The translations under genes and the position numbers were made by a program. Shown one piece after another: positions 5,603 through 63,853 of a stretch of 64,000 bases of DNA (the first letter of the stretch is position 1; each line of letters starts with the position of its first letter). The notes below the pieces were generated by a model, which saw nothing but the letters and a program-made list of their open reading frames with translations, made no database searches and was not told the origin of the DNA. This DNA is from a virus (Duplodnaviria; Caudoviricetes): IMG/VR virus record IMGVR_UViG_3300025789_000018, one strand, 5' to 3'.

Positions 5603-6124
5603 ATGAATATATATCTTTATATCAAACAATGTACACATTGTCAACTAAAATATTTTGGTAAAACATCACAATCAAATCCTTATGAATATAAAGGATCAGG
5701 AAAGAGATGGCGTAATCACCTAAAGAAACACAAAGCATCTGTTATAACACTTGAAGTTTTTTCATTTGATAATGAACAAGATGCTAAAGAGTTTGCTCTA
5801 GCGTTTTCTAGAGAACACTCAATAGTAGAATCTAAAGAGTGGGCAAATCTTATAGAAGAAGACGCACTCTGTGGTGGATCAAGACCATATAATAAAGAAG
5901 CAAACAAGAAAAACTCTAAACTGGGTGGATTTGCTAAAGCGGCAAAAGGATATCCAGTTTGGAACAAAGGTCTAAAGACTGGTCCAGATTCAGAAGAAAC
6001 TAAAAGAAAAAAGAGCGCCAGTAGAACTGGCAACCGACGCTCTTATAGAGAAGATGGAACTTGGTTTTGGATCAAACCAACTCTGCCATCTCCACAGCAA
6101 GATTCAACGCTTGGACTTTCTTAG
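5603..6124 (+). CDS. GIY-YIG family homing endonuclease
   Basis: IYLYIKQCTHCQLKYFGKT..Y.GSGKRW..H; paralogous to 12334 and 62769. Confidence 0.8.
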   Translation: MNIYLYIKQCTHCQLKYFGKTSQSNPYEYKGSGKRWRNHLKKHKASVITLEVFSFDNEQDAKEFALAFSREHSIVESKEWANLIEEDALCGGSRPYNKEANKKNSKLGGFAKAAKGYPVWNKGLKTGPDSEETKRKKSASRTGNRRSYREDGTWFWIKPTLPSPQQDSTLGLS

Positions 6125-7133: not shown

Positions 7134-7200
7134 TATAAATAAAATGTCTGTCACGGTATCCCCATACCCACAGACTCTAACGCTAAACAGGAGCATCAGC
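7134..7200 (+). promoter_or_regulatory. Nuclease-cassette leader copy 3
   Basis: TATAAATA, GTCTGT/ACAGAC and GGTAT/ATACC stems, same 3' block. Confidence 0.85.
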
Positions 7201-7707
7201 ATGTCTATTTATCACACACATCACATTGTCCCTCGCCATATGGGAGGCACAGACGATCCTTCAAATCTTGTCAGATTGACGATTGAAGAACACGCGGAAG
7301 CGCATAAAAAGTTGTATGAGGAATACGGCAAAGAAGAGGATAGGATTGCTTGGTTAGCCTTGTCTGGCCAGATTACTCTCTCTGAGGCATCTAAAATGGC
7401 TCATATTCTAGGTTCTTACAAAGGTGGATATGCGAAGAAACCCAACAAAGTACCAGCGCACAATAAAATAGATTGTTATTGCGTTGGTTGTAGAAAAAGA
7501 ATGAAACCTTCAGAGAAGGGTCACAAACTTTGTTTTAAAAAAGCATATGGTTTAGAGAGAACGCCAAACTCTTCTTTTTTCACATCAGAAAACGGTAAAG
7601 ATATATCTAAAAGAAACAATGCCACCTCTACTTGTCCACACTGCAATAAACAAGGTCAATATAGAGCAATGAAAAGATGGCATTTTGATAAATGTAAAGC
7701 GAAATGA
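7201..7707 (+). CDS. HNH homing endonuclease (Mob-like) with C-terminal CPHC zinc finger
   Basis: HHIVPRHMGGTDDPSNLVRLTIEEHAEAH; start set at ATG 7201 after the AGGAG SD. Confidence 0.85.
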   Translation: MSIYHTHHIVPRHMGGTDDPSNLVRLTIEEHAEAHKKLYEEYGKEEDRIAWLALSGQITLSEASKMAHILGSYKGGYAKKPNKVPAHNKIDCYCVGCRKRMKPSEKGHKLCFKKAYGLERTPNSSFFTSENGKDISKRNNATSTCPHCNKQGQYRAMKRWHFDKCKAK

Positions 7708-12267: not shown

Positions 12268-12333
12268 TATAAATAGATGTGGTTCACGATGTTGACGCAT
12301 CTAACCACACTATCGCTAAACAGGAGCAACAGC
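12268..12333 (+). promoter_or_regulatory. Nuclease-cassette leader copy 4 (most diverged)
   Basis: TATAAATA, GTGGTT/AACCAC and GATG/CATC stems, CGCTAAACAGGAGCAACAGC-ATG. Confidence 0.8.
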
Positions 12334-13002
12334 ATGTCTATTTATCTCTATGTCAAACAATGTCCCCACTGTGGGCTAAAGTATTTTGGTAAAACAGAAC
12401 AAGATCCATATACTTACAACGGATCAGGAAAGATGTGGATTCCACACATCAAGAAACACAAAGTCACACCAAAAACAATAGAACTATATGAGTTTTCTGA
12501 TAAAGAGGAAGCAAAAAAGTTTGCTATAAACTTTTCTAAAGAAAACAGAATAGTAGAATCTAAAGAGTGGTTCAATCTTGTTATAGAACAGTGTGACGGT
12601 GGAGACACCTCGGCTTCTCCAGCATTTCAACGATGGATTGATCAGATAGACATGGCTGGTGAAAAAAATCCTATGTATGGTAGATCAGCAATAACTGAAC
12701 AAAATCTTCGTTGGTATACTAACGGTGAGAACAATCTATATCTTCCTGTCGGCACAGAGATGTTGGGTTATCGCCGAGGAAGAACTATAAAACATAGAAA
12801 ACCACATACACAAGAACATAAAGACAAGATATCTAAAGCAAATACGGGAAAGAAAAGTGTAAATCAAAAAACGTGCATATCACCTGATGGAAATATATAC
12901 GAATCTATCACACAAGCCGCAAACGCACATTCAATGACTGTATCGGCGTTCAGACATAAAATCGAACATAAAGAAAAACATTTGGGTTGGATTATTGTTT
13001 GA
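12334..13002 (+). CDS. GIY-YIG homing endonuclease with NUMOD3-like motif
   Basis: IYLYVKQCPHCGLKYFGKT..YNGSG; HTQEHKDKISKANTGK; start at ATG 12334. Confidence 0.82.
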   Translation: MSIYLYVKQCPHCGLKYFGKTEQDPYTYNGSGKMWIPHIKKHKVTPKTIELYEFSDKEEAKKFAINFSKENRIVESKEWFNLVIEQCDGGDTSASPAFQRWIDQIDMAGEKNPMYGRSAITEQNLRWYTNGENNLYLPVGTEMLGYRRGRTIKHRKPHTQEHKDKISKANTGKKSVNQKTCISPDGNIYESITQAANAHSMTVSAFRHKIEHKEKHLGWIIV

Positions 13003-18905: not shown

Positions 18906-19371
18906 TTTGTTTACTCCGTTTTTTCACGAACTTGGAGAAGTCCTTTTCGTCTTCGTAGGGCGTGAGGTCTAGATTTGGTGGTGATAACTTGAGGTTTTCA
19001 TGATCAAGTTTCTTGACGTATTTATCAACAAACTTATCGTATGCTCTCCAGTTTAGCCCATCCCCAACAACTGCATCATGCTCTACTGCTAACGCAATGT
19101 GATGGGCTTCTTGGTATCGAAGCCCAAACACATCTATCAAGGCCTTCTCCACTCTTTCGTGAACAAGGAGGTATTTTGTGATATCTGTACCATTAAAGTC
19201 AACGTTCATGTGTCTATCAATGTAGATGTCTTTACTGTCTTTGGAATAACCAGCAACATAAGGAACATCATACTTGTTAATGATCTTCACGGTCCTACCA
19301 ATCTCTTTTTGAAAGGCAGGATCGTGAAGCATTGTATGGACACGAAAACTATGAACTTTAGGTAGGGCCAT
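18898..19371 (-). CDS. Hypothetical protein with HExxE motif
   Basis: LLVHERVE..EAHHIA. Confidence 0.6.
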   Translation of the reverse strand: MALPKVHSFRVHTMLHDPAFQKEIGRTVKIINKYDVPYVAGYSKDSKDIYIDRHMNVDFNGTDITKYLLVHERVEKALIDVFGLRYQEAHHIALAVEHDAVVGDGLNWRAYDKFVDKYVKKLDHENLKLSPPNLDLTPYEDEKDFSKFVKKRSKQND

Positions 19372-20044
19372 TAATCAATCCAGATAAGTCTTGAAGGGTT
19401 TTGATGGAGTCATCTCTGTGGCAGACTTCGACATACTTATCAATGTCGGTAGACCACTGTTTTCCATCCCACCATTCAAAACCTTTGAACTGTGACTTGT
19501 AGATACCAATATTTCCATAGCCAGAACCAATGTAAAGATGATAATATCCCATCTTCTTGGCTAACTCTACTTCATATGCCACTAAGTGGCGTGAGATAGA
19601 AGCTTTTGGTTCTGAATAGTCCCATGCGGTAAACTGTGTTTCAAGCCCACCGTCATAAGTTGTCATCTTAGAAAATGCAACCAAGTCTCCTGCATTGTTA
19701 TGCACAAGAATCCATGTTGCACGATCTAGATCGATTTCTATTGTATAAATGTCATCGAGGTTACGTCTTGCTGTAAACATACCGAATACGGTACCAACGT
19801 CTGACATATCCTCAATCGATTCAACGTGGGTTACTTTATAACCCTTTAGTGGTTTAGTTTTCTTATCGAATAGATTGCAGTCGATGCGGACAGAACGTGA
19901 GTTATACCACTTTCTATCGTTAATCAACCAACCTTGTTCGAGGGCGTCCACTTCACGCGAGTTTTCCAGGTCTAGTTCTAAATCGTAAACTTGTAAATCG
20001 TATTGCGAAACATTACCAAAGATAGGGTGTATCTTGGTCTTCAT
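19358..20044 (-). CDS. ATE/Bpt-like aminoacyl-tRNA-protein transferase
   Basis: LEQGW..RSVRI in the N-part; LVAF...WDY...SI...E.E.AK..GY..LYIG.GY....YK..F...EWWDG..W matches the ATE_C pattern. Confidence 0.65.
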   Translation of the reverse strand: MKTKIHPIFGNVSQYDLQVYDLELDLENSREVDALEQGWLINDRKWYNSRSVRIDCNLFDKKTKPLKGYKVTHVESIEDMSDVGTVFGMFTARRNLDDIYTIEIDLDRATWILVHNNAGDLVAFSKMTTYDGGLETQFTAWDYSEPKASISRHLVAYEVELAKKMGYYHLYIGSGYGNIGIYKSQFKGFEWWDGKQWSTDIDKYVEVCHRDDSIKTLQDLSGLINGPT

Positions 20045-20053
20045 TTCTGGGTA

Positions 20054-20503
20054 TTAGCTCCTTACGAGTTTGTATGCATTACCTCCATCATCGTAAAAGC
20101 CAAGGACCAACTCAATAATAGTAAAACCGTATGCATTATATAAAGACAGAGCCACATCGTTCTCTACTCTACAGTGTAAAGTGAGAGGGGACCATGGTAT
20201 AGTCTTATTATCGATATAGTGTTGTAAAAGCAGTTTAGAGTATCCTTGCCCGCGGTATTGTGGGTCAATCTCTAAAGTTTCTAGATATTCAGATTGATCT
20301 TGATCGTCATCATAGACATAACTTATATAGAAGCCTGCTATATCATCATTGATCTGAAGAACATTGACATTACAACCAAATGATTGGTAGTCTTCAAGTT
20401 CATCAATCGTAATCGTGTCTGTTTCAAATGAGGCTTTCTCTATCTCTATCATTCTAGGATAGTCAACCTCGGTTGCTTCACGTATACTTATATAAGTTGT
20501 CAT
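20054..20503 (-). CDS. GNAT (RimI-like) acetyltransferase
   Basis: LEIDPQYRGQGYSKLLL...LHCRVENDVALSLY...GF. Confidence 0.85.
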   Translation of the reverse strand: MTTYISIREATEVDYPRMIEIEKASFETDTITIDELEDYQSFGCNVNVLQINDDIAGFYISYVYDDDQDQSEYLETLEIDPQYRGQGYSKLLLQHYIDNKTIPWSPLTLHCRVENDVALSLYNAYGFTIIELVLGFYDDGGNAYKLVRS

Positions 20504-35459: not shown

Positions 35460-36122
35460 ATGAATATTTATCGCAGAATCTGGACTCGTCATTTCGGTCC
35501 CATTCCTAAAGATGAGAATGGTAGATCATACGAGATTCATCATATAGACGGCAATCGTAAGAACAACGATATTTCCAACTTAGTTTGCATAACGATACAA
35601 GAACACTATAACATACATTATTCTCAAAACGATTGGGCAGCCTGTTTACGTATCTCACAGAGAATGTCCATTAGTGCAGAAGAAAAGTCTAACTTGGCCA
35701 AGCTTGTTCAAACAAAAAGGCTTGAAGATGGTACACATCCTTTTTTGGATAAAGAAAATCATAAAAGATGGAATAAAGAAAAGATTCAAAATGGAACACA
35801 CAACTTTTTAGGTGGTGAAGTTCAAAGAAAACGTATAGAAGAAGGAACTCACCACTTTCTAGGAAGCGATATAAACAACAAAAGAGTAGAAGAAGGCACA
35901 CATCCATTTCTAGGTGGTGAAATACAGAGACAATCTAATAAAAAAAGAGTAGAAAATGGAACACACCATTTATTGGGTGGTGAAATGAACCGTAAAAGAT
36001 TCAAAGATGGAACTCATCCGTTTCTGAAGAAAAAAGAATGTCCTCATTGTTTAAACTATCTCGATCCTGGTAACTTTGCAAAACATCATGGCGATAAGTG
36101 TAAAATGAAGATCAGATCGTAG
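35460..36122 (+). CDS. HNH homing endonuclease with tandem GTHxFL repeats and CPHC finger
   Basis: EIHHIDGNRKNNDISNLVCITIQEHYNIH. Confidence 0.85.
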   Translation: MNIYRRIWTRHFGPIPKDENGRSYEIHHIDGNRKNNDISNLVCITIQEHYNIHYSQNDWAACLRISQRMSISAEEKSNLAKLVQTKRLEDGTHPFLDKENHKRWNKEKIQNGTHNFLGGEVQRKRIEEGTHHFLGSDINNKRVEEGTHPFLGGEIQRQSNKKRVENGTHHLLGGEMNRKRFKDGTHPFLKKKECPHCLNYLDPGNFAKHHGDKCKMKIRS

Positions 36123-61610: not shown

Positions 61611-62285
61611 TCAAGAGGGAAATGTGTATCCCACCAAAGATTCTAACTCTGATAAAGATTTTTCTATCAGAGCAGATCCTTCAACGTTGTCAGCCATATA
61701 AACTTTGATAGAGCGATCTTTGAGATAGACAACTTTGTAATACGCCGATGGAACGGGAATCCTACGTTCTCCAATACAAGTAGATGGATCAGTATAGATT
61801 GCACCAGTCACCACGTATTGCGTCTCCATCCCTCTCACCATCGCTTCCAGTTCTTTCCAGATAATCCTGTTTACATCTGGTAGTTGTGGTGTCATGTTGG
61901 TCATTAGAAATGTGTCGCGCATCTGGACTTCGTTTCCAGCGTCAGCAGCGGGTGTTAGATGCCCGCGATCATATCCACTGTCTGTATAGTCATCTGGTGT
62001 TGGTGACCGTTTCAGGCGAGGATCAGAGCAGAATGCGTCGTCTCTTTCCACGTGGTCATGTGGTGGCTGTGTCACTTCAGCAGATAGAATCGTTCTCATA
62101 TTCTTTTCATCATAAAGAACGAGATAGAACGAGTTACAAAGCACTGTGGTACCAGGCACGACAATAGCCTGACCGTAAGGCCAGACTTGATTTGCAGGTA
62201 ACGATGGAGGCAGCTTCCGCTTTGCTAGAAAAGAAAATGCAGCGGAAGCTAACATCCTAGGGATAGATAGCAACCGCTGCATCAT
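61611..62285 (-). CDS. DNA/RNA non-specific endonuclease (NucA family)
   Basis: YDRGHLTPAAD..MTNMTPQ..VNR..WKELE..VPSAYYK. Confidence 0.9.
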   Translation of the reverse strand: MMQRLLSIPRMLASAAFSFLAKRKLPPSLPANQVWPYGQAIVVPGTTVLCNSFYLVLYDEKNMRTILSAEVTQPPHDHVERDDAFCSDPRLKRSPTPDDYTDSGYDRGHLTPAADAGNEVQMRDTFLMTNMTPQLPDVNRIIWKELEAMVRGMETQYVVTGAIYTDPSTCIGERRIPVPSAYYKVVYLKDRSIKVYMADNVEGSALIEKSLSELESLVGYTFPS

Positions 62286-62592: not shown

Positions 62593-62611
62593 TATTTACC
62601 TTTCATGATGT

Positions 62612-62685
62612 TGGAGCCTCATAACGGTACCTCCCCGTTTTCCTCTGGGTGGAAGCCAGATGCATTGATTCTATGCTAATGAGGC
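62612..62685 (-). tRNA. Atypical tRNA-Gly (UCC) lacking D-loop GG and T-loop UUC
   Basis: GCCTCAT/ATGAGGC-TCCA acceptor stem, GCAT/ATGC D stem, TCTGG-CTTCCAC-CCAGA anticodon arm, AACGG-GGAGGTA-CCGTT T arm. Confidence 0.75.
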
Positions 62686-62698
62686 AAAGGGTGTTTTA

Positions 62699-62768
62699 TA
62701 TAAGTAATATTGTCTGTCACGATACTACTAATATCCACAGACTCTAACGCTAAACAGGAGCATCAGCT
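62699..62768 (+). promoter_or_regulatory. Nuclease-cassette leader copy 6
   Basis: TATAAGTA, GTCTGT/ACAGAC stem, TCTAACGCTAAACAGGAGCATCAGCT-ATG. Confidence 0.85.
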
Positions 62769-63362
62769 ATGGTTATTTATCTATACGTGAAGCAATGTGG
62801 TCATTGTGATATGAAATATTTTGGTTACACTAAAACAAAAAATCCTTTCAGATATAAAGGATCTGGTCAGTATTGGATCAGACACATAAAATCGCATAAC
62901 ATAACACCTATAACTTTAGAAGTACACACCTTCTATAACCAAGAAGACGCTACGGCATATGCTATTTCGTTCTCACAAGAAAATGATATTGTCGAATCTA
63001 AATCTTGGGCAAATCTTGTACAGGAAGACGCTAAACCTGGAAATGTGGGATGTAAATATCACACAGGACCAAGATCGGGGTTAACTGAAGAATCGAGAAT
63101 CAAAATGGGACTTGCGAACAAGGGGAAGAAACGATCATCTGATACTATAAAAAAACTTTCAGATTCACACAAAAACAGAAACAAAACTCAACTAGAAATA
63201 GATCGTTTAACTAGTCTACACAAGAAAAATGTAGGTAAAAAAAGATCAACTGAAACAAAAGAAAAAATGAGACTTGCTCAACTTGGTAAAGTTCCAAGTG
63301 AAGAGACTAAGAAAAAAATAAGCGAAACATTAAAAAATAAACATCAAGGCAAAAGATCGTAG
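62769..63362 (+). CDS. GIY-YIG homing endonuclease with NUMOD3-like repeats
   Basis: IYLYVKQCGHCDMKYFGYT..YKGSG; SEETKKKISE-type repeats. Confidence 0.85.
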   Translation: MVIYLYVKQCGHCDMKYFGYTKTKNPFRYKGSGQYWIRHIKSHNITPITLEVHTFYNQEDATAYAISFSQENDIVESKSWANLVQEDAKPGNVGCKYHTGPRSGLTEESRIKMGLANKGKKRSSDTIKKLSDSHKNRNKTQLEIDRLTSLHKKNVGKKRSTETKEKMRLAQLGKVPSEETKKKISETLKNKHQGKRS

Positions 63363-63574: not shown

Positions 63575-63592
63575 GCTCTTATTTATATGGAA

Positions 63593-63669
63593 TGGTCTAC
63601 CATGAGAGATTTGAACTCCCGATCTCCTGGCCCCAAACCAGGCGGATTACCAGACTTTCCTAATGGTAG
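63593..63669 (-). tRNA. tRNA-Pro (UGG)
   Basis: CTACCAT/ATGGTAG-ACCA acceptor stem, CCTGG-TTTGGGG-CCAGG, TTCAAAT T loop. Confidence 0.9.
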
Positions 63670-63677
63670 ACAATAAT

Positions 63678-63777
63678 CTATTTAGATGAACAATGAACGT
63701 TCAAGTTCTGGTCCTGATTTTCATACCATCTAGCGCCTTACGTCTAGTTCGTAATAGATCATTGTTCATCAAAATAG
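63678..63777 (-). ncRNA. Putative small structured RNA C (GAUGAAC family) between two tRNAs
   Basis: CTATTT-T-GATGAACAATGA / TCATTGTTCATC-T-AAATAG terminal stem; two inner hairpins. Confidence 0.55.
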
Positions 63778-63779
63778 TC

Positions 63780-63853
63780 TGGTGCCGATAAGAAGAATCG
63801 AACTCCTGTCAGAGGGTTACAAATCCACTGTATTACCACTATACTATATCGGC
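63780..63853 (-). tRNA. tRNA-Thr (UGU) with mismatched anticodon stem
   Basis: GCCGATA/TATCGGC-ACCA acceptor stem, TTCGATT T loop; anticodon stem GTGGA/CCCTC has U-U and A-C mismatches. Confidence 0.85.

Follow-up and report, generated by a model that had tools for sequence, protein, structure and literature searches.

The window analysed here (the whole 64,000-nt stretch of phage DNA) contains at positions 62612-62685 a glycine tRNA gene in which all six canonical elbow bases, G18, G19, T54, Psi55, C56 and A58, are replaced (6/6), and comparison of its sequence with those of its relatives indicates that the corner of the molecule is rebuilt with a second matched base set rather than lost. 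Our preferred reading, to which we give a probability of about 0.58, is that the gene would encode a dispensable, translation-competent accessory tRNA-Gly(UCC). The elements of the gene are as follows.

62612-62685, minus strand: tRNA-Gly(UCC) gene with encoded CCA and the alternative elbow, recognized by its cloverleaf, Rfam score, predicted fold, identical copies and family.
62666-62672, minus strand: D loop A14 G15 A16 A18 U19 C20 A21 (AGAAUCA), matching the family pattern ARAAKYA.
62651-62653, minus strand: anticodon UCC, read from the sequence, with C35 and C36 as GlyRS identity bases (PMC9976931).
62628-62634, minus strand: T loop G54 G55 A56 G57 G58 U59 A60 (GGAGGUA), matching the family pattern RGMRKUA.
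62612-62615, minus strand: discriminator U73 and encoded CCA, read from the sequence.
62693-62700, minus strand: putative weak, degenerate octamer resembling a T4 late promoter, 15 nt upstream of G1.

By fold and identity this is a real glycine tRNA gene. It is 74 nt long, runs from 62685 to 62612 and forms stems of 7, 4, 5 and 5 Watson-Crick pairs; the cloverleaf was both the minimum free energy and the centroid structure (−23.2 kcal/mol, z −1.98), and the Rfam model RF00005 scored it at 42.2 bits (cut-off 29, E 2.6e-6). The bacterial GlyRS identity set, U73, G1-C72, C2-G71, C35 and C36 (PMC9976931), is complete. An earlier sequence-only reading had described the perfect stems, these acceptor pairs, U73, the UCC anticodon, the encoded CCA and the two loop sequences, all of which were borne out by sequence and fold, but it was mistaken in counting C3-G70 as a retained glycine feature, since this pair is absent from the bacterial identity set and 61/68 Gly relatives carry G3-C70. 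Its suspicion that standard finders may miss the gene held for ARAGORN, which with default settings returned only tRNA-Pro, tRNA-Thr and the permuted tmRNA from the window, while Rfam detected it. When cultured phages were searched by blastn with the gene, the only matches were partial ones to ordinary tRNA-Gly. Read-through from an exact octamer at 63587 is a possible alternative source of transcription.

To place the elbow, we scanned metagenomes and viral contigs with patterns that left the anticodon free, which gave at least 150 distinct cloverleafs sharing the D loop ARAAKYA and the T loop RGMRKUA. The family spans at least 11 amino acids, mostly in phage tRNAs, with Gly 68, Val 23, Thr 12, Gln 11, His 10, Lys 9, Cys 6, Ile 5, Met/CAU 3, Glu 2 and Asp 1 among the matches listed, and in these the cognate discriminators were kept (U73 in 68/68 Gly, C73 in 10/10 His and A73 in 23/23 Val). 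Positions 19 and 56, among the matches listed, were G-C in 98 and U-A in 52 without a single mismatch; patterns that demanded U-A supplied most of the U-A cases, and a scan with both positions free gave 91 new genes, 90 with G-C and 1 with U-A. Positions 54/58 were G/G (89) or A/U (61) only, again among the matches listed, although any of four combinations would have fitted the patterns and all four occurred in chance matches that formed no cloverleaf. A56 covaries with U19 and G54 with G58. The wide patterns demanded A18 and G55, and reciprocal scans returned both unasked: the T loop used alone as the query recovered cloverleafs with the D loop, and the D arm by itself recovered cloverleafs with the T loop. 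In the stems, 98.2% of cells were paired, with a covariation score of 0.96 as compared with at most 0.14 for slid controls.

Taken together, the reciprocal recovery of the loops, the strict pairing at 19-56 and 54/58 and the stem covariation lead us to conclude from these alignments that the corner is rebuilt and not lost. The sequence-only reading was right that the canonical GG and TPsiC are absent, that glycine identity is intact and that the gene is not decaying; the loops are replaced by a matched set. The window gene fits this A18/G55 class with A18 and G55, a Watson-Crick 19-56 pair and G/G at 54/58. A18 and G55 would contact each other in this corner, and 54 and 58 perhaps form a flipped reverse-Hoogsteen pair. 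A candidate 15-20 pair, perfect in the first set, was rejected in the larger one (A/U 130, A/C 11, G/C 7 and G/U 2).

Gly is over-represented in the family: in the unbiased scan it accounted for 47/91 of the matches listed, mostly from one pelagiphage clade. The Gly members with U19-A56 lie mostly amid other tRNA genes and have no neighbouring enzyme in common. Among cultured phages, the elbow was found in the tRNA-His of the BE-cluster Streptomyces phage Warpy (L194:8999-9072) and some 30 records of related phages, most of which leave it unannotated, and in a tRNA-Gly(ACC) of Pelagibacter phage Mosig (L193:3001-3074), which is not annotated as a tRNA and is covered by a 31-codon hypothetical-protein ORF directly upstream of gp45; the family contains 15 such A34 Gly genes among the matches listed. 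An exact Gly-UCC/GGAGGUA pattern gave 64 matches and no cloverleaf in 185,579 genomes, a strict elbow pattern gave three matches and no tRNA in 401 genomes belonging to the same class as a Sphingomonas genome, and genome G367 contained ordinary tRNAs only. The subtype with U19-A56 and G54/G58 was found in viral or metagenomic contigs only and in none of the cellular genomes scanned. We found no description of an A18/G55 elbow in a literature search that covered few subscription journals, and the terms tried gave no mention of it in a paper on the Anabaena trn operon or in a T-loop review.

Evidence that a close form of the elbow translates came from genome G400, which we take to be of the SAR11 type because its 16S matches four SAR11 probe motifs. 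This genome of 1.3 Mb, with about 30% GC in the fetched loci, has 32 tRNAs that make up a full set; its sole tRNA-His carries A18, G19, A54, G55, C56 and U58, and its sole tRNA-Phe carries A18 and G55. Since the His and Phe codons of this genome have no other reader, the close form must work on ribosomes. Unlike the window gene, these SAR11 tRNAs retain the G19-C56 pair, and their D loops are different. In the complete 186-kb phage G414, G55 was present in 36/40 tRNA calls of an array that covers most amino acids and includes a Gly(UCC) on a scaffold similar to that of the window gene, and the phage gave no ATE-like, Mom or DruA-like match. The array (L425, G414:C1:126500-142000), whose roughly 40 tRNA genes almost all carry G55, also contains a CUA-anticodon gene, Ala(CGC), Arg(GCG) and Leu tRNAs with short variable loops. 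Because the exact U19-A56, G54/G58 subtype was not seen in cells, its competence in translation is extrapolated from these sequences and remains probable rather than certain.

The window, with nrdA/B, RNA ligase and primase, belongs to the genome of an uncultured T4-like phage whose relatives carry gp43, UvsX, gp41 and gp45. Its two-piece tmRNA presumably indicates an alphaproteobacterial host; the tmRNA is permuted, lies at 2380-2785 on the minus strand and has its own T4-type late promoter motif. The tRNA-Gly gene lies downstream of tRNA-Thr and tRNA-Pro, between an 89-aa gene and the following gene.

62769-63362, plus strand: GIY-YIG/NUMOD3 homing endonuclease, which travels with this tRNA-Gly allele.

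Identical copies of the tRNA were present in five related records (L001, L012, L013, L023 and L024), and in L001 the allele and the endonuclease occupy the same slot. Where the endonuclease is absent, the slot holds another Gly allele (L003, L019-L022) or two Gly genes (L025); in L002, L004, L006 and L026 the tRNA and most of the endonuclease are cleanly deleted (window 62607-63257), with a remnant left. As near-identical phages hold this allele, another, two or none, the tRNA-Gly is accessory and dispensable and its slot turns over fast. The other Gly(UCC) allele (L003:9908-9981, also in L005 and L019-L022) has the D loop AGAGAUU and the T loop UUUGAGU, without the D-loop GG and with U54/U55, and is a second, independent elbow change with a possible A19-U56 pair. 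A sister gene in L009, 92% identical, lies between nrdA and nrdB without the endonuclease cassette, and its anticodon-stem changes are compensated.

Several other features were observed around these loci. The tandem tRNA-Gly genes at L025:3126-3272 have a short D arm (first gene) and a shortened anticodon stem with G33 (second gene). The tRNA-Pro, tRNA-Thr and tRNA-Asn genes (window 63593-63853; L001, L002, L025 and L026) are unrelated alleles among near-identical strains, one tRNA-Asn allele carrying A54. Antisense homing-endonuclease-like cassettes lie on the plus strand at 1699-2469, 5603-6124, 7144-7707, 12277-13002, 35460-36122 and 62769-63362, some with related upstream DNA, and an intergenic element of ~65 bp is repeated at about ten sites. 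Two phage tRNA-like genes of G002 (L427 and L434) have irregular anticodon loops, one shortened and one expanded.

In the preferred reading, the tRNA would be co-transcribed during infection with the tRNA-Pro/Thr next to it, receive glycine from the host GlyRS and be bound by EF-Tu with somewhat low affinity, and would read GGA, perhaps all GGN, on host ribosomes as a spare tRNA. It would keep its L-shape through the second set of corner contacts, with U19-A56 in place of G19-C56, A18/G55 in place of G18/Psi55 and G54/G58 in place of T54/A58. Having no U54, U55 or G18, the rewired corner should not need modification by TrmA/TrmFO, TruB or TrmH, and it may evade those host factors or nucleases for which the ordinary elbow is the recognition site; such modification independence or escape would be the likely benefit of the rewiring. 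Simple codon compensation is unlikely, because GGA makes up only 15% of the Gly codons in the window.

A less probable alternative is that the tRNA is a non-ribosomal glycyl donor, which would be charged by GlyRS, bind EF-Tu poorly and feed a candidate phage enzyme of the GNAT fold, for example a Mom-like DNA-modifying one encoded elsewhere in the genome. To evaluate EF-Tu binding, we used the additive T-stem model of PMC3239215 with an outlier limit of 1.3 kcal/mol. The calculated affinity of the window tRNA was −10.1 kcal/mol, as compared with a mean of −10.8±0.68 (one SD) for bacterial Gly-UCC and about −9.5 for the staphylococcal donors, so that it is calculated to bind more tightly than the latter and lies within the outlier limit. 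The Gly members of the family are predicted to bind weakly, near the staphylococcal value (mean −9.47, n=65, as compared with −10.49 for 30 phage tRNA-Gly with a canonical elbow, the sequences not being independent; U19-A56 subgroup −9.64), while His, Val and Gln members equalled their ordinary counterparts. However, the essential SAR11 tRNA-His also came out weak (−9.4), which suggests that the additive model may misjudge tRNAs with the alternative elbow.

Gene neighbourhood gives the donor alternative further support. A Mom gene precedes one Gly member by 35 nt (L278:3340-4264), and a DUF4338/DruA-like gene accompanies 11 Gly family loci and phage Mosig and none of the non-Gly loci, at 48-59 nt from the tRNA in L211 and L283. 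Mom uses Gly-tRNA-Gly, although it accepts all ordinary tRNA-Gly isoacceptors (PMC13219725). The DUF4338 model adopts a GNAT fold, and the fold search placed Mom (8BV8) at ranks 5-6 (E 3e-3), a weak link, and profile comparison of DUF4338 with Mom gave no match. The allele of L003 likewise lacks the D-loop GG. Against this, the tRNAs associated with Mom or DruA are all of the other, G19-C56 subtype and come mostly from one pelagiphage clade, so that shared descent could explain the association. Moreover, we detected neither a Mom nor a DruA-like gene in the window, in overlapping records of close relatives that amount to 130 kb, or, as judged from the called genes, at the gp46-gp45 slot, which contains one in Mosig and a TAGT glycosyltransferase in this phage lineage. 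The pelagiphage loci themselves (L211:5377-6637, L283:1698-2981, L308:1631-3428, L278:3340-4264 and Mosig MT647606 7779-15683) contain Gly tRNAs with UCC or ACC and weak calculated EF-Tu binding, which are candidate glycyl donors for DNA modification.

The sequence-only reading had proposed a recipient for such a donor within the window.

19358-20044, minus strand: ATE1/Fem/MprF-fold protein of 228 aa, assigned from its predicted structure and unlinked to the tRNA-Gly.

The model of this protein (pLDDT 88.9) had ATE1, L-PGS, MprF and FemX as its best structural matches, which favours a donor role in general, and on the basis of this model it probably uses an aminoacyl-tRNA. That it is the recipient enzyme is nevertheless highly improbable, and the proposed partnership was not supported in either direction. 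The gene is full-length on a contig where the tRNA-Gly is deleted from its slot, and it is absent from G002 (97% complete, with a U19-A56 Gly), G414, Mosig and Warpy, all complete or nearly complete genomes that carry such elbow tRNAs. It occurs in at least 558 stretches of viral contigs, and 17 other, larger records with it (two at least 90% complete) have a canonical TPsiC tRNA-Gly and no alternative-elbow Gly, as scanned with a pattern that requires U8 and that missed a known CAU member in G480. Among cultured phages and PHROGs the protein had no match, and a profile comparison of its family with Mom gave none. The ATE-like protein is thus not linked to the tRNA-Gly. Behind nrdB, the minus strand at 19358-20503 encodes a GNAT protein and this ATE1-fold transferase.

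It is unlikely, as a sufficient account, that the gene is a replacement allele carried by the GIY-YIG cassette, whose DNA resists the endonuclease that cuts the resident tRNA-Gly and whose RNA function is secondary. Endonuclease-driven replacement of tRNA alleles has a precedent in SegB, encoded in the tRNA cluster of T4. The distribution in the slot fits, as the tRNA and the endonuclease occur together in L001, other alleles occur without the endonuclease and the strains with a remnant have no tRNA. However, the L009 sister gene has no cassette and the same elbow occurs in at least 150 tRNAs elsewhere, so that the cassette could account for the arrival of the allele and not for the design of the elbow. 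Of the earlier proposal of an allele immune to the adjacent nuclease, what survives is that the GIY-YIG cassette may have brought the allele; immunity as the reason for the elbow does not, since many phages with it are free of such a nuclease. The non-specific nuclease at 61611-62285 also speaks against this role, being retained in strains without the tRNA-Gly. Arrival on the cassette and the preferred reading of an accessory translating tRNA may both be true.

It is very unlikely that the RNA, once charged or bound, acts mainly as a decoy or competitor for a tRNA-targeting toxin of the host, a nuclease or GlyRS. Its acceptor and anticodon identity are intact and include U73 and G71, the bases of tRNA-Gly recognized by TacT-type toxins (PMC9976931), and the fast turnover of alleles at the slot suggests conflict; yet a decoy should mimic the host tRNA, and an alternative network combined with cognate identity over 11 amino acids fits translation better. 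A decayed pseudogene is hardly credible: although the gene is deleted in several near-identical strains and missed by ARAGORN, its stems are perfect, the changes in L009 are compensated and its loops match a family of at least 150 members.

We tentatively propose, at odds we hold to be below even, that phages use a second, fully purine-swapped elbow (A18/G55, U19-A56, G54/G58) that would sustain translation with none of the standard T- and D-loop modifications and be hidden from proteins that read the ordinary corner, and that its Gly members may feed Mom-like DNA-modifying enzymes. Textbooks present the G18/G19-TPsiC corner as universal. With a natural alternative that covaries strictly over 11 amino acids, one can ask by experiment which of the corner contacts the ribosome, EF-Tu and RNase P depend on and whether T54 and Psi55 are dispensable, and the cultured carriers (the Streptomyces BE-cluster phages and Mosig) make elbow tRNAs open to experiment. 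Elbow scaffolds may serve as modification-independent engineered tRNAs. As default ARAGORN detected only 10/150 elbow-family genes among the matches listed, phage tRNA counts are expected to be too low.

G18, G19, T54, Psi55, C56 and A58 are listed as near-universal in tRNAs (PMC10424219). Like canonical tRNA-Gly(UCC) (RF00005), the window gene forms a cloverleaf with 7-nt D, anticodon and T loops and a 4-nt variable loop, and it keeps U8, A14, A21, U33, G53-C61, R57, the Gly identity set and an encoded CCA. Unlike it, the gene has A18, U19, G54, G55, A56 and G58, A48 in place of a pyrimidine, C3-G70 and a T stem that is weak by one SD for a tRNA-Gly.

Staphylococcal non-proteogenic tRNA-Gly species have lost the D-loop GG, and the sequence-only reading had compared the gene with them. 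It does share with NP1-NP3 (PMC7826273) the UCC anticodon, GlyRS identity, the absence of U55 and A49-U65. Their T loops, however, start with UGC or UGU and keep U54 while that of the window gene starts with GGA, and their T stem, a weak EF-Tu binder at about −9.6 kcal/mol, continues with U50-A64 and A51-U63 in place of A50-U64 and C51-G63. They are also Gly-only with known Fem partners, whereas the elbow described here is independent of the amino acid and has no partner linked to it. The analogy is therefore weak, the same elbow serving 11 amino acids and a close form occurring in the essential SAR11 tRNA-His, and by T stem, T loop and partner the gene is placed by its sequence outside the staphylococcal family.

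Phage tRNAs that rescue from host defences (PMC10264068, PMC11555353, PMC11464382 and PMC12445682) are likewise accessory, strain-variable and altered, which makes a similar role plausible. They differ in that the OLD study, and an eLife study by its title, place the resistance in changes of the anticodon arm, and no escape based on the elbow was found; the OLD nuclease reads the anticodon arm and Cas12a3 the T-arm backbone and CCA, neither reading elbow bases. The gene also resembles the wider A18/G55 tRNAs, which combine A18 with G55 and a purine at 54 (A54/U58 in the His and Val tRNAs of the SAR11 genome G400 and in the G414 array), and among which the window gene represents a more narrowly defined subtype, marked by loops fixed at 7 nt, U19-A56 and G54/G58. 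The Steinberg group has reportedly described tRNA-Pyl, mitochondrial and laboratory-selected suppressor tRNAs with non-standard D and T loops, in which GG and TPsiC are said not to be strictly required. In those tRNAs the contacts are missing or variable, whereas the elbow described here keeps a single alternative network in natural tRNAs of many isoacceptors.
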